DNA of 64,000 nucleotides from Pseudomonadota bacterium. GTDB lineage: Bacteria; Myxococcota_A; Bradymonadia; UBA4248. The notes below the pieces were generated by a model that was not told the DNA's origin, ran no database searches, and was given only the letters and a program-made list of their open reading frames with translations. The translations under genes were made by a program, and so were the position numbers. Shown here one piece after another: positions 4,572 to 30,934 of this stretch (position 1 is its first letter; every line of letters starts with the position of its first letter). The stretch lies in NCBI GenBank assembly GCA_017464085.1, contig JAFUEE010000105.1, positions 7,214 through 71,213 on the forward strand, written 5' to 3'.

Positions 4572-6125
4572 ATGTATCTGCTCAAGGGAATTTTAGATTT
4601 TCTGACGATCCTGTTCCGGCGGCCTAAGTTCCTGTTCATGATCGCCACGCTCGTGCTGACGGTCGTGACAGTCATGACGGTCTATGGCGTGGGCGTCGTG
4701 TCGGATGTGCCGGTCTATGTCGTGGATCACGACAACAGCACGGTCAGCCGGTCGCTTCGCCTGTTCCTCGATGCCGGGCCTGATCTGAAGGTGCTGGGGA
4801 CGCTCGATACGCTCGAAGAAGCGGAAGATGTGCTCCGAAATGGCGAGGCCGCTGCTGTCGTGTATATTCCGAATGGGGTGTCGCAGGCCGTCAAGACACA
4901 GAGCGGCGGACGCGTTTTCGCCTATCTGGATGGCTCCAACATGCTGCTCGCGCGCAATGCCGACAAGGCCATTCAGACAGTCGTCAAGACGGCATCTGTC
5001 GGCGTGAGCATGATTGCGGTCAATAAAAAGGGCATGCCCAAGCATGAGCTGATGGGCGCGCTTCAGCCGATCAGGCTCGATGTCGACAGGCCGTTCAATA
5101 CGCTGACGCTCTATAGCGAATACCTCGTGCCCGTCCTCATCTTCTTTTGCCTCAATATCTTCATCTGCCTGATGACTTGCGCGTGCTATCAGGAGCCGCT
5201 GCCCGAAGCCGTGCGCCAGCACAGCATCCGCAAGCGCTTCTTTTATTTCGGACGCCTTCTGGTCGTTTTTGTGCTCTCGCTGTTGGGCGGCCTCTGGATG
5301 TATCAATATGGCTTGCCCAGGGTCGATATCGTACTGCAGTCGATGCCCATCATGGCTCTGAGCGCGCTGCTCGTCTATGTCGCGCTCACGCAGGCGCTGT
5401 TCGCGAGCATCAATCTGCTGACTCCGAAGCCCATCGCGATGTCGCTCTCTTACCTGACCTGCATGCTCAGCGTCATGTTCTCTGGGCTGACTTGGCCGCT
5501 CGAGATGATGCCCTGGTATATCAGGGAGTTCGCGACATGGATTCCGCTCACGCCGTTTTTGCAGTCCGTGCAGGTCTTTCTGTATCACGATGCGAACTGG
5601 GGCGATCTCGCGGATTTTTACCAGATGTTCCTCAAACAGCTGGTGCTCTATGCCATTTTGATCTTCGCTGCGATGCGCATGCGGGATATCAAGCTCTTCA
5701 CGAAGTGGGTCTGGCGCAAGCTGCGCGGAAACTCGGTTGAAGATGCACCGTCTGGAAATGGCGATGCGGTGGCTGTGGGCGTAACCAGCCAGACTTCGGT
5801 CACAGACGGGGTCGCTCACGGCGTAACCAGTCAGACTTCGGTCACAGACGAGGTCGCTCACGGCGTAACCAGTCAGACTTTGGTCACAGACGGGGTCGCT
5901 CACGGCGTAACCAGTCAGACTTTGGTCACAGACGAGGTGACTCACGGCGTAACCAGCCAGACTTCGGTCACAGACGAGGTCGCTCACGGCGTAACCAGCC
6001 AGACTTCGGTCACAGACGAGGTCGCTCAAACAGTGAACGACACAAACTCGGCAGCAGGTTTGGAGGTCAAAGGCAGATCCCGGCGCAAGAAACGCGCGAA
6101 ATCCGCCAGGGAGGATCAGCCATGA
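4572..6125 (+). CDS. ABC-2 family transporter permease with C-terminal 14-aa x6 tandem-repeat tail
   Basis: N-terminal TM helix, large periplasmic loop, then 6 TM helices (YhhJ/YbhS-like). C-terminus has GVTSQTSVTD(E/G)VAH x6 encoded by 42-bp tandem repeats (5779-6030), then a basic tail RSRRKKRAKSAREDQP. No ABC ATPase domain. Confidence 0.75.
   Translation: MYLLKGILDFLTILFRRPKFLFMIATLVLTVVTVMTVYGVGVVSDVPVYVVDHDNSTVSRSLRLFLDAGPDLKVLGTLDTLEEAEDVLRNGEAAAVVYIPNGVSQAVKTQSGGRVFAYLDGSNMLLARNADKAIQTVVKTASVGVSMIAVNKKGMPKHELMGALQPIRLDVDRPFNTLTLYSEYLVPVLIFFCLNIFICLMTCACYQEPLPEAVRQHSIRKRFFYFGRLLVVFVLSLLGGLWMYQYGLPRVDIVLQSMPIMALSALLVYVALTQALFASINLLTPKPIAMSLSYLTCMLSVMFSGLTWPLEMMPWYIREFATWIPLTPFLQSVQVFLYHDANWGDLADFYQMFLKQLVLYAILIFAAMRMRDIKLFTKWVWRKLRGNSVEDAPSGNGDAVAVGVTSQTSVTDGVAHGVTSQTSVTDEVAHGVTSQTLVTDGVAHGVTSQTLVTDEVTHGVTSQTSVTDEVAHGVTSQTSVTDEVAQTVNDTNSAAGLEVKGRSRRKKRAKSAREDQP
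5779..6030 (+). repeat. 42-bp tandem repeat x6 inside the 3' end of the ABC-2 permease gene
   Basis: gtaaccagccagacttcggtcacagacgaggtcgctcacggc-like units seen directly. Encodes the GVTSQTSVTDEVAH repeats. Confidence 0.85.
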
Positions 6126-8049: not shown

Positions 8050-11000
8050 ATGAATCGTTCGAAATATTATCTGACCACGTTATTTGCACTTATTTTGGCT
8101 CAGGCCTGCGGTTCGGAAGCTCCGAAAGATGAAGAAAAGCCTGATCCGGAGGGGCCGGAATGCACTTATGACTCTGCCTGCGAGTCGGGAATCTGCCTTG
8201 AAACGGGAAAATGCGCGCCGCTTGTGTCGCTCGGAGAGGCTTGTGGGGCGGAGGCTGCATGCAAGAAACCCTATATCTGCAAGGATGGGACGTGCGCGGT
8301 GGATCCGACATACGGCCTGAAATTGTGCACATCGGACAGCGCTTGTCACGATTCGCACAAATGCTTGCCTTCCGGCTATTGCGCGGTGATGGTGGAGCTT
8401 GGCGGAAACTGCGATGAATACCGCATCTGCGTGGGCAGCAATGAGTGCCGTGACGGCCGCTGCGCGCGCAAGACTTGCGAGACACAGGAGGATTGCCCGG
8501 ATGGGACGCTCTGTGAGCTTTCGCAGTGCATCGAAGTGACGGTGCTCGAGGCTGGGCAGGCGTGCGATCCGGGAAGCCGGACGGCGGTCTGCGCGGAAGG
8601 CCTGACGTGCATGAGCAATGTCTGCTCGGACGGGATCGATATCAAAGGGTGCGAAAGCGACGACGATTGCGCCGAAGAACCCCAGCACAAGCAATGCCTG
8701 AGCACCGGCGTGTGCGGCACGATCGTTCAGCTCGGGGAGTTTTGCGATTCGCGGTATGTCTGCGCGGATGGCCTGGACTGCAATATCTTCTGCCAGAAGA
8801 CGAAGCAGGAGAATGAGACGTGTTCCGACGAAGTGTATGAGATGTGCGGGGATGGGCTCGTATGTATCGAAGGGACTTGCCGCAAATACGAGCATCAGCT
8901 GGGGCTTGGGGAGGAATGCAACGATTTCTATCGCTTCTGCGATGACAAATATGAGTGCCGAAGCGGCAAATGCAGCCAGTTCGTCGGGGAAAATGAGACA
9001 TGTGGCGAAGATAAATCGCTGTACTGCAAGAGCGGTTTTCAGTGCATCAGTTCGATCTGCACGCATGCGACCGTGGAATGCACGCAGACTTCGGATTGCC
9101 AGGAGCGCGACTCGTTCTGCTGCCTGGGGGATGACTGCGGCGCACAGAACAAGTGCGTGCCGTACAATGAGACGATCACGCATGATTCTCAGTGCCGCCT
9201 TGAGACGAAACCGGGCATCTTTGAAGCGCAGATCCAGTGCCGATGGCAGCCGACAGGCATGGAGGTCGGCTCGAAAAATGTCGAGCTTCCGCCGCTTGTC
9301 GGGCATTTCGGGAACAAGCTCGGGCTCAAGACCGTCATCGCGGTGTGGTCGTATGACCCGACAGTGCTGCGCTTCATCCATCCAGAGACATGCGAGACGA
9401 TCGAGTCGCTGAAATATGCGATGAATGACCGCTGGTACAACTCGCTGGCGGCCGTGGACCTTGACGGCGACGGGCTGCTGGAGCTCATCGCGGTCGATGC
9501 GAAGAAGCGCCCGGTGGCGTTCAAATACAATGCGGCGGCGAAGAAGCATGAAGTGATGTGGAATGCCGATCTCGAGGGCGCGGGATCGATCCTGTCTGTC
9601 TATGATGTCAATGGCGACGGCAAGCCCGAAATCGTGCTCGGAGAGGCCGTGCTCAATGCCGAGACCGGGGAGACGATCTATGCGGGCGCCAATAAATATG
9701 ATTATCAGACCGCGGCGATCGGCAATTTTGACAAGAATGCCGAGGGCATGGCGACGCTTGCGATCGCTAACCATGTGTATAAATGGGATGACGCGAACAA
9801 GACCTGGAAGCAGATCGCCGAGCTGCCGACGGGATCGGCCAAGCAGTATTATCACTTGGCGTATGCGGACTTCGGAACGTCGGCTGACTCGTCCTCGCGG
9901 TTTGACTTTACGAAGCTCGACGGCGTTCCGGAACTCGTGGCGACAGGCGACAGCAAGCTGTTCATTATCGAGCTCGTGCCGAAGACAGGCGCGCCCGGCA
10001 AATATAAGGCTAACAAGATCATGGAGGTCAGCGGCTTTGAAGTGGGCGGCCCGATCACGATCGGCGACTTCAACAACGACGGACTCCCCGAAATCGGCAT
10101 GGCCTCGAAAGGGCAGTTCGGCGTGTATGACCCCAAATGCAAAGGCTATGAGGAAGGCAAATGCGCCGACAAGAATATCCTCTGGGAACGCTGGAGCCAG
10201 GATGCTTCCTCGGGCACGACCGGGTCGTCGCTCTTTGACTTTGACGGCGACGGGCAGGCGGAAGCCGTCTATGCTGATGAATGCTTCACGCGCGTGTATG
10301 ATGGCAAGACAGGGCGAATCCTGTTCAGCGCGAAGCGCTCCTCCGATACGTCGATCGAAGGCCCCGTCGTCGCGGATATCGACGGGGACGGCAGCGCGGA
10401 AATCCTGATGGGTTCCGACATTCCGATGAATTGCTATGATGATACGAACAAGCTCGTCTCCGGCGGCGTCGATCCGATTCACGAAGGCATACGCTGCATC
10501 GATGACGAAGACTGTCCGTCCGGGAAGAATTGCAACCAGGAAATCGGCCTCTGCACCTGCACGACGGATGACGAATGCAATTCGCAATATATCAAGAACA
10601 AGCTCGTGACGCAGTACACCTGCACGGATCCGATCCATCCCGAAGTCGGGCTGATGCGCAATGCTGACAACGGCGCTTCCCGCTCAATGGTCAAAGCGAT
10701 CGGCACGCGCCCGGATGGCTGGAAATCCGGCGATTACAAAGTCTGCCGCGCGACGCGCAAGACCTCGGATATCGGCATCGGCGATCTCATGATCTATAAG
10801 GACAGGCTCGACCGCTGGGTGTCCTCTCGCTCGCTGTGGAACCAGCATGCCTATAATATCATTAATATAGAGGATGACGGCAAGCTGCCGACCGTCGAAC
10901 AGTGGCTCAAGCTCTGGCTCGAAAAGAACTACAAGCTCACGATCGAAGGCTCGGATGCGCCGCGCATGGTCCACAACAATTACCGCATGAACCGCCAGGG

Positions 11001-11421
11001 CGAATATGGCGCCGGGCTGGCGCCCGATATCACGGGCCGATTCATCAGCGGGTCGATCTGCGGCACGACCGAAGACGGACGCCGCGTCATCAGCGGCAAG
11101 CTCTGCAACCGTGGCACGAAACCTGTGTCGATGAACCTCCCCGCGAGCTTCTTCTTCTATGACGAAGCTTCGGACAATCACCTCGGGGAGAAAATCTGCA
11201 CGTCTTATACGAATGCGAATGTCGGCGTTGGGGAATGCGCTCAGGTTGGCTGCGAGGTCAGCGAACAGCAGCTCAAGGAATTTGAAGGCAAAAAGGTCAT
11301 TATGGTCTCCAACCTGGATGAGTACGGTTTTGCAAGCACCATCGAATGCAACTCAGAAAATAATATCGATACGATCACAATCGATAAGTGTGAAAAAGAC
11401 CCGATCGATATCGTGAACTGA
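8050..11421 (+). CDS. Large secreted Cys-rich protein with FG-GAP/VCBS (integrin-alpha-like beta-propeller) repeats, paralog 1
   Basis: 1123 aa with a signal peptide. ~7 N-terminal ~45-aa Cys-rich modules (C..DS.C.SG.C...G.C). FG-GAP Ca-binding loops DLDGDGLLE, DVNGDGKPE, DFNNDGLPE, DFDGDGQAE, DIDGDGSAE. 62% alike to the paralog at 15744-19172 over the C-terminal 700 aa. Confidence 0.8.
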   Translation: MNRSKYYLTTLFALILAQACGSEAPKDEEKPDPEGPECTYDSACESGICLETGKCAPLVSLGEACGAEAACKKPYICKDGTCAVDPTYGLKLCTSDSACHDSHKCLPSGYCAVMVELGGNCDEYRICVGSNECRDGRCARKTCETQEDCPDGTLCELSQCIEVTVLEAGQACDPGSRTAVCAEGLTCMSNVCSDGIDIKGCESDDDCAEEPQHKQCLSTGVCGTIVQLGEFCDSRYVCADGLDCNIFCQKTKQENETCSDEVYEMCGDGLVCIEGTCRKYEHQLGLGEECNDFYRFCDDKYECRSGKCSQFVGENETCGEDKSLYCKSGFQCISSICTHATVECTQTSDCQERDSFCCLGDDCGAQNKCVPYNETITHDSQCRLETKPGIFEAQIQCRWQPTGMEVGSKNVELPPLVGHFGNKLGLKTVIAVWSYDPTVLRFIHPETCETIESLKYAMNDRWYNSLAAVDLDGDGLLELIAVDAKKRPVAFKYNAAAKKHEVMWNADLEGAGSILSVYDVNGDGKPEIVLGEAVLNAETGETIYAGANKYDYQTAAIGNFDKNAEGMATLAIANHVYKWDDANKTWKQIAELPTGSAKQYYHLAYADFGTSADSSSRFDFTKLDGVPELVATGDSKLFIIELVPKTGAPGKYKANKIMEVSGFEVGGPITIGDFNNDGLPEIGMASKGQFGVYDPKCKGYEEGKCADKNILWERWSQDASSGTTGSSLFDFDGDGQAEAVYADECFTRVYDGKTGRILFSAKRSSDTSIEGPVVADIDGDGSAEILMGSDIPMNCYDDTNKLVSGGVDPIHEGIRCIDDEDCPSGKNCNQEIGLCTCTTDDECNSQYIKNKLVTQYTCTDPIHPEVGLMRNADNGASRSMVKAIGTRPDGWKSGDYKVCRATRKTSDIGIGDLMIYKDRLDRWVSSRSLWNQHAYNIINIEDDGKLPTVEQWLKLWLEKNYKLTIEGSDAPRMVHNNYRMNRQGEYGAGLAPDITGRFISGSICGTTEDGRRVISGKLCNRGTKPVSMNLPASFFFYDEASDNHLGEKICTSYTNANVGVGECAQVGCEVSEQQLKEFEGKKVIMVSNLDEYGFASTIECNSENNIDTITIDKCEKDPIDIVN

Positions 11422-11511
11422 TATCGGATCGCGCGGATGTCCTCGGGCATTCGCGCTTTTTGTTTACTGGCATGGCCTGTTGAGGGGACTTTGATATGGG
11501 GAGTGTGTATG

Positions 11512-13626
11512 CGAATCATGGAGATGAAAAAAGCATTATATGTGGGGATTGTTTGCGCGGTTTTGAGTTTTCAGGCTTGTGAAACGGATAGTCGCGCGTT
11601 GCTCGTTGATCCGGATATTTATGAACCCGGAGATATCGTTGACCCTGACCAGCCTGAGCAACCCGACCAGCCGGATCAACCAGACCAGCCCGACCAGCCG
11701 GATCAACCTGACCAGCCGGATCAACCAGACCAGCCAGATCAACCAGACCAGCCGGATCAACCAGACCAACCCGACCAACCAGACCAACCAGACCAGCCAG
11801 ATCAACCCGACCAACCCGACCAGCCAGATCAACCCGACCAGCCAGATCAACCTGAGCAACCTGACCAGCCGGATCAACCCGACCAGCCGGATCAACCAGA
11901 CCAGCCCGACCAGCCTGAGCAGCCGGATCAACCAGACCAGCCCGACCAGCCTGAGCAGCCCGACCAGCCTGAACCGCTTGTGGGGTGCGCAGACCCTGCA
12001 AATGATGGCAAACCCTGCGATAATGGGGAGTCGCGGCCTTGCGCAGTGTCTGTATGCAAGTCGTTGAGCTGTGTGTCTGTGGCGGTGACGGATCAGCGCG
12101 TGTGCAGGCCATCTGCGGGCGTATGCGACGTCGAGGAGCGTTGCGACGGAAGCGCGCTGGACTGCCCTGCGGACAAGTTTGCGCCTTCGTCGACGGTGTG
12201 CCGCGCGTCTGCGGGCGTATGCGATGTGGCAGAAAATTGCACGGGGAGTTCGGCATCTTGCCCTGCGGACAAGTTTGCGCCTTCGTCGACGGTGTGCCGT
12301 GCATCTGCCGGGGCATGCGATGCGGCAGAGAACTGCACGGGGAGTTCGGCATCTTGCCCTGCGGACAAGTTTGCGCCTTCATCGACGGTGTGCCGCGCTT
12401 CGAGCGGCGGATGCGATGCGCCCGAAAAATGCACGGGATCGAGCGTGTCCTGTCCTGCGGACGGATTTAATTCGAGCTGCACTTGCCCGAATGGCAGCGG
12501 CAAAGACAATTATGTGACAAAGATTTCGTCTCCGAATTACGTGCTTCAAGACAAGAACCAATGGGATAAATATACAAAAATTATCGATTCGCTTGGTTTG
12601 AAACAGATTTCACCGCATGAGCTCAATTTCAATCGGACGATGCAGAACATGGGCTCGCGGACGTGGACAGGCTATAAGAAAGGCTGGTTTTGGGAGAGCG
12701 GCGATTGTTCTGTATCCTATTGGATACCGCAGGGGCTTGCAGGCGGCGGCAGCGGCGGCCTGACCATCCGTGTCGTCGGCTGGCATTATGATGAAGAAAA
12801 AGTTTCTGCAGACAGCAACCCTGCCGCTGATGAAAGCAATAAAGATAAAGGTGTGCGGATATCATTTATAGATTCGACAGATACATCACAGGCGCTGAAA
12901 TATCGCCATGTCTTGCTCGTGGAACCGGACAGCGGCGACCGCGGCTTCAAACCTGTAAAGAATCATGTCGGCGGCCTTGTCTGGTTGTGGCCATATCTCT
13001 ATGTGGCAGATACGAACAAGGGCATGCGCGTCTTTGACCTCCGCAAGATATTAAAAGTCGATACATCTGATTGTGACCGTTATGCCGGCAGACATAATAA
13101 TAAATATTGCGCGTATGGCTATGGGTATGTTTTGCCTCAGGTGAATGCGTATTTCTATCCGGGAGAAATGAATGATTCCTGCAAGCCTAAGTTTTCATTT
13201 ATCGGGCTTGAAAATGTGAATGGCAAGAAATCTATTCTTTCTGGCGAATATATAAAGAATGGCAATAATGGCCGTCTTGTGCGCTGGCCTGTCGGGGATG
13301 GCGGAAAGCTTCAGACAGATGATAGAAATATCGTGCAAGCGAGTCATGCGTGGTATGCAGGCAGCCCGAATCTTCAGGGCGGCCTGACATATACAAATGG
13401 AAAGACATATTTTCTGCTCAATTCTACAAAAGGATCTGGAACATTATATGTCGGTGTGGAGGGCACGAAGACGAAATCATATATTTCTACAAGCGGACAG
13501 TGGGCATATATGCCGGAAGGGATGTATCTGACATCCTCAGATAACATCTGGGTATCGACAGAAGGACATACATTGCTCAAACGCGGTGTATTTTATGCGA
13601 GCGTGAAGAAGATATTAAATTTGTGA
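11512..13626 (+). CDS. Secreted lipoprotein: (DQP)n linker + 4 disintegrin-like Cys-rich repeats + C-terminal beta-rich domain
   Basis: Signal/lipobox VLSFQAC. About 50 D-Q-P tripeptides. Four ~40-aa repeats CRASAGVCDVAENCTGSSASCPADKFAPSSTV resemble the ADAM/disintegrin motif (ECD...C.G.S..CP.D.F). The C-terminal ~400 aa is lower GC with an LVIVD-like stretch (LYVADTNKGMRVFDL). Confidence 0.7.
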   Translation, partial: RIMEMKKALYVGIVCAVLSFQACETDSRALLVDPDIYEPGDIVDPDQPEQPDQPDQPDQPDQPDQPDQPDQPDQPDQPDQPDQPDQPDQPDQPDQPDQPDQPDQPDQPDQPDQPEQPDQPDQPDQPDQPDQPDQPEQPDQPDQPDQPEQPDQPEPLVGCADPANDGKPCDNGESRPCAVSVCKSLSCVSVAVTDQRVCRPSAGVCDVEERCDGSALDCPADKFAPSSTVCRASAGVCDVAENCTGSSASCPADKFAPSSTVCRASAGACDAAENCTGSSASCPADKFAPSSTVCRASSGGCDAPEKCTGSSVSCPADGFNSSCTCPNGSGKDNYVTKISSPNYVLQDKNQWDKYTKIIDSLGLKQISPHELNFNRTMQNMGSRTWTGYKKGWFWESGDCSVSYWIPQGLAGGGSGGLTIRVVGWHYDEEKVSADSNPAADESNKDKGVRISFIDSTDTSQALKYRHVLLVEPDSGDRGFKPVKNHVGGLVWLWPYLYVADTNKGMRVFDLRKILKVDTSDCDRYAGRHNNKYCAYGYGYVLPQVNAYFYPGEMNDSCKPKFSFIGLENVNGKKSILSGEYIKNGNNGRLVRWPVGDGGKLQTDDRNIVQASHAWYAGSPNLQGGLTYTNGKTYFLLNSTKGSGTLYVGVEGTKTKSYISTSGQWAYMPEGMYLTSSDNIWVSTEGHTLLKRGVFYASVKKILNL
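11640..11985 (+). repeat. 9-bp (gaycarccn) tandem array, ~38 copies, encoding DQP repeats
   Basis: Seen directly. The opposite-strand and off-frame ORFs (11516..12382, 11536..11931, 11579..12067) are artefacts of this array. Confidence 0.9.
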
Positions 13627-13735
13627 TGATTTATATATAGAAAGGCGCTATCCCGTTGGGATACGCGCCTTTTGTGCGCGTCCTATTTCGCATTCGCTCA
13701 ATACGGCCGCGCAACTTTTTAAAAGGAGATGCGCC

Positions 13736-14545
13736 GTGCGTCATAGATTTGGATATATCGTTTGTGTTTCGCTTTTCTTGTGCGGCTGCGGCACAGATGA
13801 GGATGGAGCGAAGTGTTCGCCGGCATGTGCCGCTGGGCTGGTCTGTCAGGACGGGCAATGTGTGCCGCAGAGCTCGCCAGGCTCTCCTACAGACCCGACG
13901 CCCGGCACGCCCACAGACCCGACGCCTGGCACGCCCACAGACCCGACTCCTGGCCCGGGATCATCCTGTGGGGCATCGGCCTGCGTGGCTGGGGAGCTTT
14001 GCCTGAACGGCCAGTGCGTCCAGCGAGATAACAAGGCGGTGTCTGGACAGCCGTGCAATGCGCAGACGTTTGTCGAGTCGTGTGACGGCAATCAGCTCGT
14101 CTATTGTTACTGCGATGAATCCGGGACTTGCCAGACCGAAGTGGCGGCGTGCGGCGCCAGCGAGACATGCGCCCTGATGGCGGATAAAAACCTCGGGATG
14201 TGCGCGATTGCGGATGCGAAGTGCGCGCAGCCCGGGACATTCACGCGGTGTTTTGACCTCGAGGGCGGTGTATCGTATGTCGAGTATTACACATGCGTGC
14301 AGGCGGTGGACGGCAAGTATTATCCGTTCCGCGACGGCATTCGGACGGCGGACTGCATCGGGGCATGCGTGGACAGCTATCGGTGCAACCTGAATGACGA
14401 GGATTGCGGCAGCGATTTTAGCGAGACCTGCGAGGGGGATATCGTGACCTATTGCTCGGAGGGCAAGGTCTTTCGGATGAACTGCGGGGATTATGGCACG
14501 ACTTGCGTGATGTCTGGCGGCAAGGCGGACTGTGCCTGGGAGTGA
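13736..14545 (+). CDS. Cys-rich secreted lipoprotein with PTDPTPG linker
   Basis: GTG start at 13736 after AAAAGGAG. Lipobox LCGC. PTDPTPGTPTDPTPGTPTDPTPG repeat, then ~18 Cys in C.G..C..G.C modules. Confidence 0.6.
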   Translation: MRHRFGYIVCVSLFLCGCGTDEDGAKCSPACAAGLVCQDGQCVPQSSPGSPTDPTPGTPTDPTPGTPTDPTPGPGSSCGASACVAGELCLNGQCVQRDNKAVSGQPCNAQTFVESCDGNQLVYCYCDESGTCQTEVAACGASETCALMADKNLGMCAIADAKCAQPGTFTRCFDLEGGVSYVEYYTCVQAVDGKYYPFRDGIRTADCIGACVDSYRCNLNDEDCGSDFSETCEGDIVTYCSEGKVFRMNCGDYGTTCVMSGGKADCAWE

Positions 14546-14822
14546 TGACGCCGCGTGTATGTATCGTGGGCGTCCGCTGAGCGTATAGGTTATTCATACG
14601 GCGCTTTCTTGGCGCCCCCCTATGCGCCTGCAGCGTGCGCGGGCGTTTTCTCATTTTTCAATCCGCACGGCACAGACCTTGGCAAAGAATGCAATATCGA
14701 CCTGCAAAACCGTCTCGTAGCCTTCAGAGAGCAGTTCCTCGACATAATGTCTGTTGTGAATCTGTTGCATGGCGAGTTCGGCATCGCGTTTGATCTGGGC
14801 AAACGAATCAGAATATTTGAAT

Positions 14823-14921
14823 TCAAAACAGCGCGGCGACTTTTGCCTCGGCTTCCTCGCGCTTCATGTTTTTTAATTTGCCAGTGAATAAGAATGTTTT
14901 GTTCTCAAAAATGTTTGCCAT
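14823..14921 (-). other. 32-aa ORF with BRCT-like motif (possible gene remnant or small protein)
   Basis: MANIFENKTFLFTGKLKNMKREEAEAKVAALF resembles the start of a LigA-type BRCT domain (K.FV.TG.L..M.R.EA....LG). AAGGTG sits 7 nt upstream. Lies inside a 1.2-kb non-coding, lower-GC island. Confidence 0.25.
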
Positions 14922-15743
14922 GGTTGAACACCTTATATTTTGAAGCGCCTATTACCATACCAGAATATGATTGGCGATAAACATGTGCATAAAAACTATA
15001 TATCACTGCTGTCATTGACAAAGCTGACGAATGTCAGCTTTTCTCTCTGGTCTTGAGTCAAATTGATTTGCCAGCGATTCTGCATGAAGTCGAGCAGATG
15101 CAAACTGCGTTGATAGATGCGCTGTCCATCCCATACATCTTCTCTGGCAACCTCGACTTCGGAATTGGAACCATTCGAGTAGCCTCGTTCTCTCCGACTG
15201 GTTCTACTCTTTTATCGTCGAAGCTGTCGTTCTGATGGCTCGAATTGGTGTTCTGAGCCAGCGGCAATAGATTGCCCAAGGCGCCGATCAAAGCAGTCAT
15301 TTCATTTTCGTTTTGGATGTATGTGGAGAAATGGGTTTGCTAATACGAGTTTGAAGGGGATTGTGGGAGAATATGTTCAATGGAAACTTTAGCAGGGGCT
15401 TCCTGCGACTATGTTTCTGGCGGCTTTCGCTTTCAAGCTGTTGGATATGCGTGGGGAGCATGCGCTGCGTATGGCTTTGCCATAGCAGCGCGGCGGAGGC
15501 GTATTTGCGCCAGCAAAAAGCCGGAGCCACCCACAAGGCAGAGAGATGCAGTGTATCTGGAATTTAGGCGTTTAATTGTTACGTGTGGGATTGCGCGGCG
15601 ATTCGGCGAGTGAGCTTGGGGCTGCGTGAGCGGCCGGCGGAAATGTAGCGCATGGTGGATACAAAAGTGTATCATCTGTTTTGATTGGCGCATAAATATG
15701 CTATACAGGGAAGGTGTTTTTAGGCTTGCTTGAGGAGCGTATC

Positions 15744-18700
15744 ATGAACAAATATTTTAAGATTTTATTGGCTGGCGTAGCCGTGTCATTTTTTGGCTGC
15801 GACGATGCGTCGGATGAACAGCAGAAGCCGGAAGAGCCCAAATATGAGTGCTTGAACAGCTCGGAGTGCGATTCCGGCATCTGCGTGGAAGGCAAATGCG
15901 CGAAATATGTGGGGCTGGGGGATGCGTGCGACAGCGTGCATCTGTGCAATGAGCCTTATGAATGCGTGGAAGGGGCGTGCGCGGAGCATGTGGTGGATGA
16001 GCCTGAAAAGCCTGAGTGTACGAAGGATGCTGAGTGTGATTCCGGGAAGTGCCAGGCGGACGGCACATGCGCGTCCGTGCCCAAGGGCAATGGCAAAGAG
16101 GGAGATTCTTGCGGGGACGATGCCCCGTGTGATTTCCCGCTGACGTGTGACGGCACATGCAAGGCGATCGAATGCACGGAGGAAGACCAGGGCGACTGCC
16201 CGTCCGGGACGATCTGCGAGAACGACAGATGCGAAGCAATCGTGTATCTGAAGGCGGGGGAGGCCTGTGTGGCGGATTCGTCCGTGAGGGTGTGCGAGGG
16301 CGAATTGTCCTGCATCAAGGGCGTTTGCGGCGAAATCGTGAAAGACGGTACGTGCGAGACCGCGAGCGACTGCACGGATGCGGAGACGCCTGTATGCCTG
16401 CCGTCCGGCAAATGCGGGGCGGTCGTGGAGCCCGGCGGATTTTGCAATGAGCAGTATGTGTGCCCGGAGGGGTTTGTGTGCGAGATTTTCTGCAAGCATA
16501 TCCGCCAGAAAGGGGAGTCATGCGATGAAGAGGCATACGACTTTTGCGAAGAGTCCCTGGCTTGCAAGCACAATGTTTGCGTGGCGTTTGAGTATGATCT
16601 GCCGCGCGGAGCTGAGTGCAACGATGAATATAAGTTCTGCGAGAAATCGCTGGAATGCGTGGAAGGTGCGTGCGCGGAGTATGTCGGGGAGGATGCGTCG
16701 TGCAATGCTTCTGAGCACATCCTTTGCAAGGCCGGCCTGGAATGCATCAAGGATGTGTGCACGCCGGTAGGCGGAGGCTGCTCGAAGTCGTCGGATTGCC
16801 TTGAGAAGGACTCGTTCTGCTGCCAGAGTGATTCCTGTGGCGCGAAGAATAAGTGCGTGCCGTATAATGAAGAGATCACGTATGACGAAGCCTGCCGTTT
16901 CACGACGAAGCCGGGGATATTTGAGGCGCAGGTGCAGTGCCGCTGGCAGCCGCCTGCGGATGCCTATCCGAAGTCGAGCAAGGTGGAGATGCCGCCTTTG
17001 GTCGGGCATTTCGGGAACAAGGACGGGCTTGAGACGGTTGTCGCATTTTTCTCGTACTTTACGCGTGCATCTGAGCCGACAAGCGACCAGCTGCTCGGCG
17101 TGATCCGCTTTATCAATCCGGATACGTGCGAGACGCTTGAGTCGGTGCGCTATAATCTGATGCGCCACGGCAAGAACTGGCCTGCGGCGGCTGATATGGA
17201 TGGCGACGGCCTGCTCGAGTTCCTGACATTTGATGCGTCAGGTCATATCTTGGCGTTCAAGTGGAATGCGACGAACAAGCGCCACGAGAAGCTCTGGCAG
17301 AGCAAAGTCGCGAACAAGGGCTATTATATCAACGTGTTCGATGTGGATGGCAATGGGCAGCCCGAGGTCGTTGTCGGCACGACCGTGCTTGATGGCAGGA
17401 CAGGCAAGACGATATATGAAGGCGGGGCGCTTGGAGGCTACAATGTCGCCATCGGCATTTTTGACAATGACCCGACCGGTCAGGCGATGCTCGTGAGCCA
17501 GAAGGATGTCCTGAAATGGAACAAGGCGAAGAAGGACTGGACCACGGTTGCGACGCTTCCCTCCAGCCTTGCATATAAGGCTTATGCAGATTTCGGGACG
17601 CCGGGGGCCACTGCGGAGGATTTCGACTATACGAAGCTTGACGGATTTCCCGAGATTGTTGCGGGCGGCAGCAGCAAGCTGCATCTGTACGCGCTCGTGA
17701 GCAATGGGGACGGCACTTATGGCGTTCAGACGCTGATGAGTGTTGACGGATTTACGACAGGCGGCCCGATCACAATCGGCGATTTCGACAGCGATGGGCT
17801 TCCCGAAATCGGCGTGGCCTCGAAGGGCTTGTTCGGCGTTTATGATCCGCGTTGCAAAGGTTATGAGGCCGGGAAATGCGCGGACAAGAATGTGCTGTGG
17901 GAGCGCTGGAGCCAGGATGCGTCTTCTGGCGCGACGGGGTCATCGCTTTTCGACTTTGACGGCGACGGGCAGGCCGAGGCCGTGTATGCAGATGAATGCT
18001 TTACGCGCGTCTATGAAGGCAAGTCCGGGCGCGTGCTTTTCAGCGCCAAGCGCTCTTCTGGCACGACGTATGAAGCGCCGGTCGTTGCGGATATCGATGG
18101 CGACGGCAGCGCGGAGATCCTGATGGGGTCGGATAACAACAAAACTTGCGCGGATGATACCGGGGAGCTGATCAATCCCAACAGTCCGGGAAAATCGAAC
18201 TGCGTGGATCCGATTCACGAGGGCATCCGCTGCCTGGATGACGAAGACTGCCCGACAGGCAAGGGGTGCAACAAGGAAATCGGCCTGTGCATCTGCACGT
18301 CTGATGCGGACTGCAATACGCAGATCGCCCCGGGCAAGGATACGATTCTGCAGCAGTATGTCTGCGCGCCGCCGATTCATCCCGAAGTCGGCATCATGAC
18401 GAACGAAAAAGCCGCTAAAGCGCGCACGATGAAGCAGCCGATCGGCACACGCCCGGATGGCTGGAAGAAAGGCGATTATCAAGTCTGTCGCGCCACTCGC
18501 TTGACAAAAGATATCGGCGTGGGCGACCTGATGATTTTCAAGGATCGCCTCGACCGCTGGGTGTCTTCGCGTCCGCTCTGGAATCAGCATTCTTACAATA
18601 TCATCAATATCGAGGATAATGGCCGCACGCCTACGCCGACGCAGTGGATCTGGAACTGGCTGCTCAAGAATCCGAAGCAGACGATTGTGGGGACGAATTA

Positions 18701-19172
18701 TCAGCGCCCTGTGTATAACAATTACCGCCTGAACAAGCAGGGCCAGTATGGTGCCGGTGTGGTGCCCGATATTACCGGGCGCTTTATTGCCGGCTCGATC
18801 TGCGGTCAGACCGAAGATGGCCGTCACGTCATCAGCGGCAAGCTCTGCAACCGGGGCACGAAGCCTGTTTCGATGAATCTGCCCGCCACATTCTTCTATT
18901 ATGAAGAAGAAGCTCCGGATCATCGCGGCCAGAAGATCTGCACCTCTTACACCAAGTCGAATGTCGGCGTTGGGGAGTGTGCGCAGGTCGGCTGCGAGAT
19001 CACGGCGGATGAGCTCAAGGCGCTTGAAGGCAAGACTGTTCTGATGGTTTCCAACTTGGACGAAAACGGCTATCCGAGCACAGTCGAATGCAATGCCGAC
19101 AACAACATCGATATGACGACAATCGACAAGTGCGCGTCTGAGGAAGATGCGCCGATCGTGATCGTCAACTGA
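15744..19172 (+). CDS. Large secreted Cys-rich protein with FG-GAP/VCBS repeats, paralog 2
   Basis: ATG at 15744 after GAGGAG. Same architecture as 8050-11421: Cys-rich modules, FG-GAP loops DMDGDGLLE, DVDGNGQPE, DFDSDGLPE, DFDGDGQAE, DIDGDGSAE. The C-terminal ~600 aa is nearly collinear with paralog 1. Confidence 0.8.
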   Translation: MNKYFKILLAGVAVSFFGCDDASDEQQKPEEPKYECLNSSECDSGICVEGKCAKYVGLGDACDSVHLCNEPYECVEGACAEHVVDEPEKPECTKDAECDSGKCQADGTCASVPKGNGKEGDSCGDDAPCDFPLTCDGTCKAIECTEEDQGDCPSGTICENDRCEAIVYLKAGEACVADSSVRVCEGELSCIKGVCGEIVKDGTCETASDCTDAETPVCLPSGKCGAVVEPGGFCNEQYVCPEGFVCEIFCKHIRQKGESCDEEAYDFCEESLACKHNVCVAFEYDLPRGAECNDEYKFCEKSLECVEGACAEYVGEDASCNASEHILCKAGLECIKDVCTPVGGGCSKSSDCLEKDSFCCQSDSCGAKNKCVPYNEEITYDEACRFTTKPGIFEAQVQCRWQPPADAYPKSSKVEMPPLVGHFGNKDGLETVVAFFSYFTRASEPTSDQLLGVIRFINPDTCETLESVRYNLMRHGKNWPAAADMDGDGLLEFLTFDASGHILAFKWNATNKRHEKLWQSKVANKGYYINVFDVDGNGQPEVVVGTTVLDGRTGKTIYEGGALGGYNVAIGIFDNDPTGQAMLVSQKDVLKWNKAKKDWTTVATLPSSLAYKAYADFGTPGATAEDFDYTKLDGFPEIVAGGSSKLHLYALVSNGDGTYGVQTLMSVDGFTTGGPITIGDFDSDGLPEIGVASKGLFGVYDPRCKGYEAGKCADKNVLWERWSQDASSGATGSSLFDFDGDGQAEAVYADECFTRVYEGKSGRVLFSAKRSSGTTYEAPVVADIDGDGSAEILMGSDNNKTCADDTGELINPNSPGKSNCVDPIHEGIRCLDDEDCPTGKGCNKEIGLCICTSDADCNTQIAPGKDTILQQYVCAPPIHPEVGIMTNEKAAKARTMKQPIGTRPDGWKKGDYQVCRATRLTKDIGVGDLMIFKDRLDRWVSSRPLWNQHSYNIINIEDNGRTPTPTQWIWNWLLKNPKQTIVGTNYQRPVYNNYRLNKQGQYGAGVVPDITGRFIAGSICGQTEDGRHVISGKLCNRGTKPVSMNLPATFFYYEEEAPDHRGQKICTSYTKSNVGVGECAQVGCEITADELKALEGKTVLMVSNLDENGYPSTVECNADNNIDMTTIDKCASEEDAPIVIVN

Positions 19173-20170: not shown

Positions 20171-20267
20171 TCGCGATAGTGATTAACGAAATTTTAATAT
20201 TGGCATTCATATTGCTTATAAACACACTTGTCACATGAAGTGGCCCAACGCCATAATGGAGGTCTCT

Positions 20268-20870
20268 ATGAAATGCTTCAAGCTTAATGCACTTCTCTTT
20301 TCGGCATTCGCCCTGTTCTGTTTTGCTGGCAATGCCAATGCGAAACCGCCGCATCACCACAATCAATCCTCTGCGCATCATCAGGACAAAGACAGATGTG
20401 AGTGCCGTGGAAAACCAGGTTGCAAATGCGATGATCGCAAGCATGGCTCGCATTCAGCGCCTGCCCCCAAGCCTGCGCCCGTGCCGCCGCCTCCCGTGAA
20501 GCCTGCGCCTGTGCCGCCGCCTCCCGTGCATCCCGGGCCTGCGCCCATGCATCCCGGCATGCCCGGCGTTGGCAATGCAGTCGTGGTCATGAACCCGGGG
20601 CATTTTTCATCCCTGATCCGCCAGATTCAGAATGAGCCTTGGACGGGCGACAAGATGAACCTCATCCGCCGTGAAGCGCGTGGCAATTACTTCTCGTGCG
20701 AACAGGTCGCCGCATTGATCAGGCGCATCAATCACGACTCGAACCGCGTTCAGATGGCTGCGGAACTCTATGACCGCACCGTGGACAAGGCGAATTGGAA
20801 TCAGGTCAGGAATGCTCTGGAATATGACAGAAGTCGTCACGAGCTCGACAGGCAGCTTCATCATCGCTGA
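20268..20870 (+). CDS. Secreted His-rich / Pro-rich protein with C-terminal globular domain (hypothetical)
   Basis: Signal MKCFKLNALLFSAFALFCFAGNANA after GGAGG. HHHNQSSAHHQDKDRCECRGKPGCKCDDRKHGSH looks like a possible metal-binding stretch. (APVPPPPV)x2. C-terminal ~100 aa of unknown function. Confidence 0.55.
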   Translation: MKCFKLNALLFSAFALFCFAGNANAKPPHHHNQSSAHHQDKDRCECRGKPGCKCDDRKHGSHSAPAPKPAPVPPPPVKPAPVPPPPVHPGPAPMHPGMPGVGNAVVVMNPGHFSSLIRQIQNEPWTGDKMNLIRREARGNYFSCEQVAALIRRINHDSNRVQMAAELYDRTVDKANWNQVRNALEYDRSRHELDRQLHHR

Positions 20871-22740: not shown

Positions 22741-24285
22741 CTATTTCTTGACCTGGGCGTTTGCGGGCGCTGCTGCGGCAGGTTTCGCGGCGTTTGCGGG
22801 CGCTGCTGCGGCAGGTTTCGCGGCGTTTGCGGGCGCTGCAGCGGCAGGGTTCGCGGCGTCAGCTTTGGGGGTGGAGGGCTGTGCGGCGGCTTTGGCGTTT
22901 GCCAGCCGTTTTTCAAGCAGAGCGCTCGAATAGTTCGCGAGCTCCCCTAAGTTGGGCACCTGCATGCCCCAGCTTGTGACATCGGTCTTGTCGTTGGCAA
23001 AGCTTGCGAGCAGCTGGACATCGCTGTCTGTGCCGAGCGTGGAGAGGCAGGCCATAGAGAGCATGCGCGACATCGTCGAGCCTTTGGCCGCGAGCTGTCT
23101 GAAGACATCGAGCGGGACCTGGTTGTTCAGGTTCTGCGGGAGGTGGGCGCAATAGACGCGCAGAGAGTTCCAGAATGTGAGCGACGGCTGTTCAAGGATT
23201 GCGGGATGATCCGCAGGAATCTTGAGCAGTTCATAGTCGGACGGCAGGGACTGGATGAGTGTTGCGAAGTTTTCGCGACCTTTTTCGATGGTGAGCAGTT
23301 CGAGGCAGTCCCAGCGGAGATACCCCGTGCGGTCTGACTGTAGAAGCGTCGTGCAGATTTCAACGCCGGCCTTCTTCTGAACCTTGCGATAGTATGTCGC
23401 CATCATGACGTCTTTATAATAATTGAGCGTCGGATTATTGTAATCGGGATCCTTGATGATGCGTTCCGCGACAGGCAGAAGTTTTTCCGAGGTGTTTGTG
23501 GAAAACGGCAGGACGAGAGCGCGCGGCATGTTCGGATATTTTTCGTTGATGCGCGTGATGAAGAGCTGTGCGACCATATCGTGCGCGCCCGGGAGCTTGA
23601 GCGCTTCGAGCCCAGCGAGCGTGTTGGAGAGCTTTGTGGTGATGCGGTCGCTCGGTCGCGTGATGACTTTGTATTTTTTGCCTTCCGCGATGAGCTCTTT
23701 TTCCTTGGCAGCTTCTTTTTCGAGTGCTTCGTCAAGCTCTTTGAGGACTTTTTCGATTGCTTTTTTGTAGAGGGGGATTGATTCAGTCCCGAGAAGTTCG
23801 AAGAGTCTCTGCTGTTCGACGCGTCCTGCTTTTTCGATTGAGAGGAAGAAATTGTCGCTGTCGAGCCATCGGCGGATGAGGTCCATCAGTCCGGCGCGGT
23901 TGTCATCATTCACTTCGAGCGTGAGGATGTAGTAAGCGGCGTCCTTGACGCGTGTTTCCATGGCCGGGGTCTGTTCGATGAGGGCGTTCATGCGCTGGAT
24001 GACGCCGGCGACCACCCGGTCGAGCTCATCGGTTTTCAGCGAGCCGAGCGCCTGAGGGATTTCAACGCAATTACCGCGTTCGGTGAGGACCATGATGGCT
24101 TCGATTTTTGAATCGAGGCCGATGCGTGGGTTCTGAACGAATTCCTGCATCTTGACGGGGGCGCGTTTGTCCCGTATCCAGGCGCGGATACCCTCAGGGT
24201 CTGTGGGGGAGCAGGCCGCCGTTGCATAGGCGATGAGCAGGAGGCAAAGGCAGAGAAGCGGTCGGATGAAGTTATGGCGGATCAT
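22741..24285 (-). CDS. Lipoprotein (hypothetical) with C-terminal PAAAAPANAAK x3 repeat
   Basis: Internal Met gives signal LLCLCLLLIAYATAAC (lipobox). C-terminus is encoded by 33-bp tandem repeats at ~22757-22860. No recognised catalytic motif. Confidence 0.55.
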   Translation of the reverse strand: MIRHNFIRPLLCLCLLLIAYATAACSPTDPEGIRAWIRDKRAPVKMQEFVQNPRIGLDSKIEAIMVLTERGNCVEIPQALGSLKTDELDRVVAGVIQRMNALIEQTPAMETRVKDAAYYILTLEVNDDNRAGLMDLIRRWLDSDNFFLSIEKAGRVEQQRLFELLGTESIPLYKKAIEKVLKELDEALEKEAAKEKELIAEGKKYKVITRPSDRITTKLSNTLAGLEALKLPGAHDMVAQLFITRINEKYPNMPRALVLPFSTNTSEKLLPVAERIIKDPDYNNPTLNYYKDVMMATYYRKVQKKAGVEICTTLLQSDRTGYLRWDCLELLTIEKGRENFATLIQSLPSDYELLKIPADHPAILEQPSLTFWNSLRVYCAHLPQNLNNQVPLDVFRQLAAKGSTMSRMLSMACLSTLGTDSDVQLLASFANDKTDVTSWGMQVPNLGELANYSSALLEKRLANAKAAAQPSTPKADAANPAAAAPANAAKPAAAAPANAAKPAAAAPANAQVKK

Positions 24286-24292
24286 GAGTGTA

Positions 24293-26815
24293 TTAATTCC
24301 TTTTTTTCGGTTTTGCCTTTGTTTCAGCGGAAGCGTTGTTTTGGACGCTCTCGGCATCATCAGTGCCTGCCTGAAGGGCGGCGTTTTTTACCGAGGATTT
24401 TGGGGTAAATAAAACATTTTTTGGCAGGTTTGCGGGATCGAGGACACATCTTTTTTTGAAGACGAAGTTGAAGACGTCCTTGTAATGATCGACGAAGAAG
24501 AAGGTGAGTTCTTCTTTGATATGTGCAGCGAGTTCATCGACATCGCGTCTGTTTTTGGAACACATGACGAGCGTTCTTGCGCCTGCGCGTTTGGCGGCAA
24601 TGACTTTTTCCTTGATGCCGCCGACGGGGAGGACATTCCCGGTGAGTGTGATTTCGCCGGTCATTGCGAGGCGTTCGGGGATGGGCTGTCCGAGGAGCAG
24701 GGAGAGGATGCTCGTGGTGATGGTGATGCCGGCGCTCGGGCCGTCCTTGGGGATTGCGCCTGCCGGGAAGTGGACGTGGAAGTCGAATTTTGGGAACATG
24801 TCTTCGGTGACATGAAAGATATTCATGTTCGCGCGGATGAAGCTGAAAGCGATCTGTACGGATTCGCTCATGACTTCGCCGAGCTGTCCAGTGAGTTTGA
24901 GCTGTCCGACGCCCGGCATTTTGGTCGTCTCGATGAAGAGGATTTCGCCCCCGAATTGAGTCCATGCAAGGCCGACAGCGACGCCTGGCTGTAGGCCGCG
25001 GCTGATGACTTCGTCGGTATAGATCGGGGAGCCGAGGAAATCGGAGACATTGTCCTGCGTGATTTTTGTGACGGGATCCTGTCCGCTGGCGATGCGCTTG
25101 GCATTTTTGCGGCAGACCTTGGCGATCATGCGTTCGAGTTCGCGGACGCCGGCTTCGCGCGTGTAGCTGCGGATGACTTTCTTGAGGCCGGTGGGGGTGA
25201 ACTGCATCTGTTCGGCGGTCATGCCGTGCTCGGCGATTTCTTTGGGGACGATATGTCTGCGTGCGATCTGGAATTTCTCTTCGTCGATATAGCCGGAGAG
25301 CTCGATGATTTCCATGCGGTCGAGCAGCGGCCTTGGGATCGTGGAGGCATCGTTTGCCGTCGCGATGAACATGACATCGGAGAGGTCGAAGGACACGTCG
25401 AGGTAGTGGTCGTTAAAGGCCATATTCTGGGACGGGTCGAGGACTTCGAGCATGGCGCTGGAGGGATCGCCGTGCCAGTCGCTTCCGAGCTTGTCGATTT
25501 CATCGAGGACGAAGACGGGGTTTCGGACGCCGACGCGCTTGAGCCCCTGGATGATCTTGCCGGGCATTGCGCCGACATAGGTCCTGCGATGACCTCGGAT
25601 CTCGGCTTCGTCTTTGAGTCCGCCGAGAGAGAAGCCGAAGAATTTGCGTTTGAGCGCGCGGTTGATGGAGCGCGCGAGGCTGGTCTTTCCGACGCCCGGA
25701 GGGCCGAGGAAGCAGATGATCTGCCCTTGATGATCAGGCTTGAGCTTGCGCACGGCGAGGAATTCGAGGATGCGCTGCTTGATGTCGTCGAGACCGAAGT
25801 GATCCTGTTCGAGGACTTTTTCGGCGTATTTGAGGTCGAGGACATCTTCTGTAGTCTTTTTCCACGGGAGGTCGCAGAGCCAGTCGAGGTAGGTGCGGAT
25901 GATGTTTGTCTCGCTTGATTCCGGCGTGAGGACGCTCAGCCGCTTGAGTTCTTCCTGTGCTTTAGCTTCTGCTTCTTCGCTCATGCCGGAGGCGGCGATG
26001 CGTTCTTTGTAATTCTGGACGCTCAGGGCGATTTCGTCTTTTTCGTCTCCGAGTTCTTTCCGGATGGCGCGCAGCTGTTCGCGGAGGAAGAATTCGCGCT
26101 GGCTGGCTTCGATGCGCTCGCGGATGGTGTCGTGAATTTTCTGCCCGAGCGCCGCGAGGTCGAGTTCCTTGACGAGGATTTCGTAAGCGGCGGCGAGGCG
26201 TTTTTCGACGTCGAGTTCGGCGAGCATCTCCTGGCGTTTGAGATTTGGGACGTCGAAGTGCGAGGCGATCATGTCGGCGATTTTAGAGGGGTCGTCGATG
26301 GCGGTCATGCTGGAGAGCAGTTCTCTGGGCATATTGACCTGTTCCATTTCGGAGAGCTTTGTGAGCGCGCTCTGAATGTTCCGGCAGTAGGCCTTTGTCT
26401 GTTCATTTTCGACGTATTTGTCCTCCAGGTATTCGACTTCGGCGATGAGCCGGTCGCTTTTGAGGAAGGAGACGGCGCGCATTCTGCTGATGCTGTGAAT
26501 GAGCATCGTGAAGGAGCCGTCGGGCATACGTCCCATGCGTATGATGCGAGCGACGCAGCCGACTTTTGAGAGCTTGTCGGCAGTGAGGGTCGTCGGGTCA
26601 TCGCCTTCGCCCCAGAGGAAGCCCAGGTAATCGCTGTGTGTCTTGGCGCGTTTGACGAGCTCGAGCATGGGGCCGGGCGTGACGACGATCGGCATCATGA
26701 CGTCCGGGAAGATGACGTTTTCTGTCTGCGGGAAGATAAAGAGTTTTTCCGGAAGGTCATCTGGAATGGTGTTTTTCACGGATTCAAGAAGATCGTCTAA
26801 GATGTTGTCGCTCAC
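24293..26815 (-). CDS. lon: ATP-dependent Lon protease
   Basis: 840 aa. N-terminal LON domain, Walker [10 protein letters not shown], Walker B VLDEIDK, catalytic-Ser region [10 protein letters not shown]. Confidence 0.95.
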
Positions 26816-27177
26816 TTGTTCCTCCTGGTCGCGAATGAAATTCTGGCATCTAAGCGAATGCCATCCGCGTCAGCATATCACATTTTAAGGTGTATAGAGA
26901 AATGGTTTGTGTATGGGATGCCGGGGGAAAGTGGGGCGGCGCGTATCGCCGGAGGCGAAAGCGTCCGCCAGGCCGGCGTATGCCGCAGGCATAGCCGGCG
27001 GAAAGCGATGAGAAAGGGGGGGGATTGTGCGGGGAATGAGAAAAATAAAGTTGCGCGCTTGCGTAATGTGTCTGAAATTATTATAATGTTGCGCCATAAT
27101 TTTATGGCCGTCCTGGTCGGGGGAGGGCGGCCTCTGGATATTGGGTCATAGCGAACATTTTAATATTGAGGACACAC

Positions 27178-30837: not shown

Positions 30838-30934
30838 TTCCTGTGCCTATAGGGATTGCGGAAACTGCTGATTTTGTCTAATATAAGCGACCGGTTATGT
30901 TCGAAAATCTTTGGTAATATTGGCATCGGAGGAA

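Follow-up and report, generated by a model that had tools for sequence, protein, structure and literature searches.

How a bacterial protein comes to combine a tripeptide array, Cys-rich repeats and an AT-richer C-terminal part is the question raised by a gene on the forward strand of a 64,000-nucleotide stretch of contig JAFUEE010000105.1 (positions 7,214 to 71,213; assembly GCA_017464085.1), the whole of which is here called the window. In a preliminary description of this gene the final ~1.1 kb was regarded as a horizontally acquired or swapped effector or toxin domain on a repeat stalk. The encoded protein is composed, in order, of a signal peptide ending in Cys, a [D/E]QP array of 108 residues, a Cys-rich lead followed by four disintegrin-like half-domain units of the ADAM type, and a propeller head of 382 amino acids (Table 1), an anatomy that supports the modular, secreted head on a repeat stalk of that description. 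The suggested origin found no support. The best explanation, which we consider probable when taken as a whole, is that the gene is a monocistronic unit, that its product is a modular lipoprotein of the cell surface, and that the host, judged from the names of the nearest homologues, is a Myxococcota-like bacterium. As judged from sequence comparison, its domain combination appears to be old and inherited, with no recent swap of the C-terminal part.

The order of Cys-rich lead, disintegrin-like units, CxCP motif and head was kept in 15 of the 15 closest Disintegrin-positive relatives, which argues against the view that the C-terminal 1.1 kb is an effector or toxin cassette recently acquired from a low-GC donor and placed on a resident repeat stalk in the style of the polymorphic toxins. 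The combination of disintegrin-like units and propeller persisted down to about 37% identity, and variation was confined to the sequence of the linker and to how many units were present (1–4). When the N-terminal part and the head of the Disintegrin-positive relatives were each compared with the window protein, their identities were rank-correlated, with a rho of 0.72 that increased to 0.90 when two outliers were left out. The sister lineage L003 is syntenic with the window, with an FG-GAP gene upstream of the target gene (8050–11421 in the window; 85.6% amino acid identity), an arrangement not found in more distant lineages. Relative to L003, the head was the most conserved part of the protein (82.7% amino acid identity), followed by the stalk (73.4%) and by the signal peptide plus linker (58.9%). 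At fourfold degenerate sites the head had an identity to L003 of 0.497 ± 0.08 and its FG-GAP neighbour one of 0.478 ± 0.05. Since these values are equal, head and neighbour were inherited together and diverged over equal time. Ever since the nearest known lineage branched off, the FG-GAP gene has been inherited jointly with both stalk and head.

A recent exchange would be in line with the fall in GC content at third codon positions (GC3) near the domain boundary, from 0.62–0.68 in the disintegrin-like units to 0.49 in the head, with the patchy distribution of the head family across bacterial phyla and fungi on several different stalks, and with a second gene of the window, 30911–34288, whose C-terminal half is also low in GC3. 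The evidence from architecture and synonymous divergence, to which is added a low GC3 of the signal peptide and linker as well, makes it highly unlikely nonetheless. The head matched no toxin family in Pfam, NCBIfam and PDB sequence searches. No gene consistently adjoined the homologues in other lineages, and the downstream genes differed at every locus examined, with no immunity-like neighbour. The protein shares with the polymorphic toxins (Rhs and contact-dependent inhibition systems) a long repetitive N-terminal part, a distinct C-terminal domain and a compositional break near the junction; here, in contrast, it is the C-terminal domain that is conserved and the N-terminal part that varies, and actinomycetes and fungi also have the head by itself, as an ordinary secreted protein. 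Nothing supports a toxin role for the protein.

The atypical composition of the gene was confirmed. The GC content of the window is 0.559, and the GC3 of its confident genes, taken in segments of 100 codons, is 0.70 ± 0.08. The head region has a GC content of 0.46 and a GC3 of 0.49, compared with a GC3 of 0.68–0.74 in the flanking genes; in the other genes no run of 382 codons fell below 0.61, save in gene 30911–34288. When codons were resampled from the window's own usage with the amino acids of each segment kept, the GC3 z-scores were −10.0 for the head, −5.1 for the signal and pre-array part, −4.3 for the array and −3.0 for the disintegrin region. All four segments being below expectation, the whole gene is atypical and not its C-terminus alone; low GC3 is not a C-terminal trait, as had been supposed, and is only strongest there. 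The GC-rich middle of the gene is due in part to codons for Cys, Ala, Pro and Gly (GC content at second codon positions up to 0.78). Within the head, GC3 is uneven, ranging from 0.38 to 0.72. Neither a uniform GC3 across the gene nor a housekeeping fold for the C-terminus was found.

The low GC3 of the head is common to the window and L003 (0.46), and the anomaly therefore predates their split. Its most likely source is either an old acquisition of the whole gene or, for an accessory gene with a secreted product, a codon bias that has long been weak. In the former case the gene, from signal to stop, would have been acquired from a lower-GC donor before the split and incompletely ameliorated since. 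This is possible rather than probable. It agrees with the depression of all four segments, with the self-contained unit between two terminators, with a contig GC content of 0.46 in the nearest relative, and with an AT-skewed amino acid composition of the head (FYMINK 0.30, GARP 0.23) like that of homologues from low-GC contexts and unlike that of homologues from GC-rich hosts. However, no shift of GC3 toward the host is seen at fourfold sites that are about 50% diverged, over which time the neighbour came to differ by 0.14 GC3 between the lineages, and no flanking mobile-element genes or tRNA were seen in the context of open reading frames (ORFs) and Pfam matches.

Although synonymous sites have turned over heavily, the anomaly has been retained by both sister lineages, as would instead be expected if the low GC3 were endogenous. 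The low GC3 would then have arisen without horizontal transfer, from codon selection that is weak or different in an accessory secreted gene of low expression, or from selection for slow translation of the propeller. The uneven GC3 of the head, which forms no clean block, and the like pattern in another large secreted lipoprotein gene of the window point the same way. On the other side, in five other lineages, with a locus GC content of 0.48–0.71, the GC3 of the head equals that of its neighbours, so that the fold needs no low GC3, and other lipoprotein genes of the window have normal GC3. We put forward an endogenous cause only tentatively.

Gene 30911–34288 (+) encodes a lipoprotein of 1,125 amino acids with an ALK/LTK glycine-rich domain (PF12810, E = 6e-28, residues 876–1120). 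It contains the only other strong low-GC3 region of the window (z = −8.9 for the C-terminal half, with 100-codon segments down to 0.38), and its homologue on the sister contig L003 has a GC3 of about 0.35. A shared origin of this half and the propeller head was rejected, as they have no sequence similarity.

An AlphaFold2 model of the head, built from an alignment of 53 sequences, had a predicted local distance difference test score (pLDDT) of 96.1, a predicted template modelling score of 0.95 and 27 beta strands. The head is confidently predicted to be an all-beta propeller, the strand count being consistent with six or seven blades. All significant Foldseek matches of the model in the PDB were generic propellers (WD40, sialidase, NHL, diisopropyl fluorophosphatase and the henipavirus G head); on the model, the fold class is clear, with no specific relative among solved structures. 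The LVIVD-like propeller of the preliminary description therefore stood as regards the fold. The motif YLYVADTNKGMRVFD does resemble an LVIVD repeat, yet the LVIVD hidden Markov model (PF08309) gave no match to the window protein at E ≤ 1. Among the relatives of the head it matched weakly in 24 of 53 (best 8e-4), and the more distant P0139 just passed the cutoff (21.1 versus 20.2 bits). The LVIVD propellers of archaea and bacteria (Adindla et al. 2004, PMC2447325) are likewise secreted or surface proteins of the all-beta propeller type with a similar blade motif; the head family differs in having at most one borderline repeat per protein, conserved motifs of its own and no curated model.

A search with the single head sequence retrieved 151 homologues at E ≤ 1e-3, and a profile search retrieved 2,328, 1,296 and 778 clusters (50% identity) at E ≤ 1e-3, 1e-10 and 1e-30, respectively. 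The family spans Myxococcota, Actinomycetota (Streptomyces, Promicromonospora, Actinoalloteichus and Amycolatopsis), at least one Bacteroidota-like protein bearing a type IX secretion system (T9SS) tail, and both ascomycete and basidiomycete fungi (Teloschistaceae lichens, Tuber, Blastomyces/Emergomyces, Aspergillus and Mycena). Most named members are annotated as secreted or hypothetical proteins and are mostly stand-alone proteins of 370–430 amino acids; in actinomycetes and fungi the head stands alone behind a signal peptide. Longer members mount it on other Cys-rich stalks, namely Disintegrin (up to 11 stretches), Dicty_CTDC, MopE, DUF4215, and Laminin_G with a T9SS tail; over deep evolutionary time the head has thus been combined with different stalks. 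A literature search by the locus tags of members found nothing relevant. The head thus belongs to a large secreted family with neither a curated model nor a solved relative.

Across the Myxococcota, actinomycete and fungal members 17 columns are invariant and 30 nearly so, many of them Arg, His, Tyr, Asp, Glu or Gln. The invariant polar residues of the head are Q85, R127, Y142, R143, H144, H163, D178, R184, D187, E257, Y258, R266, R269, Q300, E347, E362 and R369, and the family motifs are YWIPQG, YRHVLLVEP, GEY, RWP, QGA and TEGH, with the blade motif YLYVADTxxGxRVFD. This polar constellation suggests a conserved ligand-binding or catalytic site. It is conceivable, and we offer it as a conjecture, that this uncurated propeller family comprises new extracellular enzymes or lectins, for example glycan-active ones, that in Myxococcota are mounted on ADAM-type 'arm' units.

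Bacterial and fungal members of the head family are 30–40% identical (P0085, P0120, P0260–P0266, P0279–P0282, P0287, P0319, P0354 and others). The patchy distribution over bacteria and fungi suggests inter-kingdom transfer at some point. The only experimentally studied secreted protein of LVIVD type found in the literature search was Pf2826 of Pseudozyma flocculosa, an LVIVD-repeat effector of about 450 amino acids that has its closest relative in a lichen of the Teloschistaceae (PMC10210494). The head family is also present in at least ten Teloschistaceae lichens. No P. flocculosa protein was among the 120 best matches of the lichen member P0120, and the primer-derived termini of Pf2826 (MKGFKLS... 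and ...VKPTFN) were not found in any retrieved protein. Pf2826 probably belongs to a different LVIVD family.

The Cys-rich part of the stalk consists of a lead, conserved in the alignment of homologues, and four tandem units with the consensus CRxSxGxCDxxExCxGSSxxCPADxFxPSSTV. The four Cys repeats noted previously are therefore real in number and disintegrin-like in kind, with a period of 32 amino acids (96 bp) instead of 40 amino acids; Tandem Repeats Finder reported a 96-bp period with 2.9 copies and 88% matches. The Pfam Disintegrin model (PF00200) matched in four stretches (83.4 bits versus a cutoff of 35.1, E = 2e-23), each covering positions 44–75 of the 75 profile positions and so falling short of the full domain; in the relative P0177 one stretch covers positions 7–75. 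A phmmer search against PDB sequences returned the disintegrin-like domains of P-III snake venom metalloproteinases (SVMPs): 3dsl_A (E = 1.4e-5), 3hdb_A (2.1e-5) and 2dw0_A (2.3e-5). These alignments span the D-loop segment only, in which the window unit pairs with 'KFAPSSTVCRASAGACDAAENCTGSSASCPADKF' of bothropasin and catrocollastatin (E = 1.4e-5).

The units are like the D-loop 'arm' of the D domain of ADAM and P-III SVMP proteins (PF00200; bothropasin 3DSL, catrocollastatin/VAP2B 2DW0), CRxxxxxCDxxExCxGxSxxCPxDxF, with equal Cys spacing. The differences are that the bacterial protein has only the C-terminal half of the domain, repeated four times in tandem, and neither a metalloprotease nor an ADAM Cys-rich domain: no reprolysin or ADAM Cys-rich Pfam match was found at E ≤ 0.1 in the 704-residue product. 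The integrin-recognition motifs RGD, KGD and ECD were not found in the loops, which before CD read PSAGV, ASAGV, ASAGA and ASSGG. The D, E and D positions that we take to be Ca2+ ligands in the 'arm' segment of VAP1 and the ADAM proteins are kept in all four units. In a search with the stalk alone, used qualitatively as it returned just proteins below 300 amino acids and omitted known longer homologues, the units were widespread in short proteins of Polyangiales, Sandaracinaceae and 'Deltaproteobacteria'. The literature on bacterial or myxobacterial disintegrins yielded just a passing Pfam mention.

The array that precedes the stalk, with Pro at every third residue and a net charge near −36, is made up of 36 units (32 DQP and 4 EQP), fewer than the ~50 DQP and ~38 DNA copies given earlier. 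Its in-frame 9-bp period and high copy number would suit a contingency-type hypervariable repeat, in which slipped-strand mispairing changes the spacer length between cells or strains. The linker does differ completely between species, with PGDITDPEQP and ENPEQPDNP repeats in P0002, DPGDP repeats in P0038 and E/D/G-rich tracts elsewhere, which speaks for repeated local expansion over evolutionary time. At the DNA level, however, the units have been scrambled by synonymous changes: 13 different 9-mers occur, runs of one identical 9-mer never exceed two, and exact self-matches reach at most 41 nt. The array was identical, with no indel, in the window and the near-clonal public assemblies L001 and L002, which carry single-nucleotide polymorphisms elsewhere. 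A 33-bp tandem repeat of the window (97% matches; 3.2 copies in the window and L002) has one copy fewer in L001, so that copy-number changes are visible in these assemblies when present. Length variation by slippage, proposed previously, was thus not observed and is improbable for the present array, in a comparison based on three assemblies rather than on sequencing reads. Metagenomes scanned once with a DNA flank and once with the protein gave no match and hence no extra strains for array length, and a genome scan with a single protein matched only Myxococcales bacterium UBA1203. The spacer has been rebuilt over evolutionary time, and the present array is synonymously scrambled and without sign of current instability.

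Rods with Pro at every third residue, charged residues in between and a position between anchor and domain are known from the XPZ region of the group B streptococcal beta antigen Bac and from the Pro-rich rod of TonB. The array of the window protein is purely acidic and not charge-alternating, and the likeness is one of analogy, not homology. The model NF038253 gave a weak compositional match exactly over the array (20 bits versus a cutoff of 1700).

The boundaries of the transcription unit were set by two terminator-like hairpins. The upstream one (−22 kcal/mol, z = −3.6) and the downstream one (−26.7 kcal/mol, z = −3.1) were each equalled in folding by 0 of 200 shuffled sequences, and the gene that they flank is therefore a self-contained unit. 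The mechanical ORF (11437–13626, 729 amino acids) begins with an ATG that is overlapped by the upstream hairpin, and this start is therefore ruled out. Position 11512, taken as the start in the preliminary description, is in frame yet is no start codon. The candidate starts, both 3′ of the hairpin, are ATG 11518 (MEMKK...) and ATG 11524 (MKK...); the orthologue P0002 (82% identical) opens with MKKALYILIACAFLGLQAC (MKKALY), which matches ATG 11524. In L001 and L002, which are 99.94–99.98% identical to the window and carry identical DNA for this gene, the gene callers divided it into a spurious out-of-frame ORF of 148 amino acids across the array and a C-terminal fragment of 393 amino acids (P0001). 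As the full frame is open and was split by the public callers, the full-length protein is missing from the protein databases.

The signal MKKALYVGIVCAVLSFQA, followed by Cys, shows an n-region and an h-region and is read as a lipoprotein signal with a putatively lipidated Cys. An xQAC ending is common to the orthologue and to neighbouring genes, which also have xGC. A protein so built would be anchored at the cell surface by lipid attached to this Cys. The array, polyanionic and with one Pro in every three residues, may form an extended, non-collapsing spacer of up to ~30 nm if polyproline-II-like, and the disintegrin-like units, presumably disulfide-bonded, may form a rigid stalk. Anchor, spacer and stalk together would hold the propeller head away from the cell, where it could bind or modify an extracellular ligand or substrate.

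Several points weigh against this interpretation. The lipobox is non-canonical, with F at −3 and Q at −2. The AlphaFold2 model of 11971–12495 had a mean pLDDT of 50.9 (repeats 31–43, lead 57–88) and was too poor for a fold search; the ideas of a rigid stalk and of Ca2+ binding therefore rest on the alignment and on known ADAM structures. For the head, the Foldseek matches were generic, with template modelling scores of at most 0.38 and root-mean-square deviations of 8–16 Å, and single-sequence and profile searches gave no Pfam, NCBIfam or PDB sequence match. As to composition, fourfold sites have diverged by about 50% since the split from L003, yet the GC3 of the head stays at 0.49 and that of the neighbour at 0.73, whereas amelioration by mutation alone should have raised the head.

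Table 1. Positions of the putative lipoprotein gene, its modules and the repeats and gene calls compared with it (window coordinates unless another assembly is named).
Feature	Position	Strand	Remarks
Terminator-like hairpin	11431..11456	+	11-bp stem, then U-tract; 3′ end of upstream FG-GAP gene; 5′ boundary of unit
Start codon and lipoprotein-type signal peptide, M(E)MKKALYVGIVCAVLSFQA followed by C	11518..11580	+	Read from sequence; codon of putative lipidated Cys 11578-11580
Acidic pre-array segment (ETDSRALLVDPDIYEPGDIVDP)	11581..11646	+	
[D/E]QP array	11647..11970	+	36 tripeptide units (32 DQP + 4 EQP), 324 nt, 108 residues
Cys-rich lead (GCADPANxGxxC...C...C...C; GCADPANDGKPC...)	11971..12102	+	Conserved in alignment of 16 architecture-sharing homologues
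Four tandem 32-aa disintegrin-like units, 4 Cys each	12103..12477	+	12103-12198, 12199-12294, 12295-12390, 12391-12477
C-terminal module from conserved CxCP motif, 382 aa	12478..13623	+	Predicted all-beta propeller-type domain; GC 0.46, GC3 0.49
Stop codon TGA	13624..13626	+	Read from sequence
Terminator-like hairpin	13640..13673	+	Directly 3′ of gene
33-bp tandem repeat, length-polymorphic	22756-22859		Inside 3′ end of − strand ORF 22741-24360
Split gene calls	L001 9177-9623, 10001-11182; L002 4134-4580, 4958-6139		Correspond to window 11621-12067, 12445-13626

The locus is bracketed by two paralogous lipoprotein genes (8050–11421 and 15714–19172, both +), whose products of ~1,130–1,150 amino acids have Cys-rich N-terminal repeats and FG-GAP/FG-GAP_3 propeller repeats of the integrin-alpha type. 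A partnership of FG-GAP and disintegrin proteins, in the manner of an integrin/disintegrin pair, was considered and rejected, as the adjacency is found only in the sister L003 and is absent at five other loci. The one actinomycete neighbourhood that was read gave no functional hint. Directly downstream, 13736–14545 (+) encodes a Cys-rich lipoprotein of 269 amino acids with no Pfam or NCBIfam match; it contains a Pro-rich tandem linker, PTDPTPGT x3 (13875–13954; 24-bp period, 3.3 copies, 89% matches). Tandem linkers of this short, Pro-rich kind seem to be habitual in the genome. Between this gene and the second FG-GAP gene lie ~1.1 kb (14600–15700) with a GC content of 0.39–0.50 and short ORFs only.

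Other predicted secreted proteins of the window carry bacterial TSP3 repeats (27166–30747, E = 2.5e-21), a sub-threshold lamin-tail domain (40870–42339, 28.9 versus 34.3 bits) and DUF4476 (20235–20870). Lipoproteins whose extracellular domains are eukaryote-like (FG-GAP, bacterial TSP3, lamin tail and ALK/LTK glycine-rich) abound in the window. In the ABC2_membrane_3 gene 4572–6125, BLAST self-hits at multiples of 42 nt with 93–97% identity (5778–6028) point to about six tandem copies of a 42-bp (14-aa) unit within a membrane-transporter gene.

For the reading of such mosaic genes, a sharp GC3 break within a gene is not enough to call a domain swap, since conservation of architecture and synonymous divergence measured against a syntenic neighbour can say otherwise, as they do here. 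Splitting by gene callers, moreover, can keep a full-length protein such as this one out of view. The codon-composition anomaly itself, persistent in two lineages, is of interest, as is a large secreted propeller family that occurs in bacteria and fungi, has no Pfam or NCBIfam model or solved structure, and is made testable by the AlphaFold2 model and the invariant polar residues. Tandem ADAM-type disintegrin-like half-domains are documented as a common stalk element of the Myxococcota and, if this assignment is true, would mean that bacteria have re-used a module that is known elsewhere from snake venoms and from the ADAM proteins of animals.

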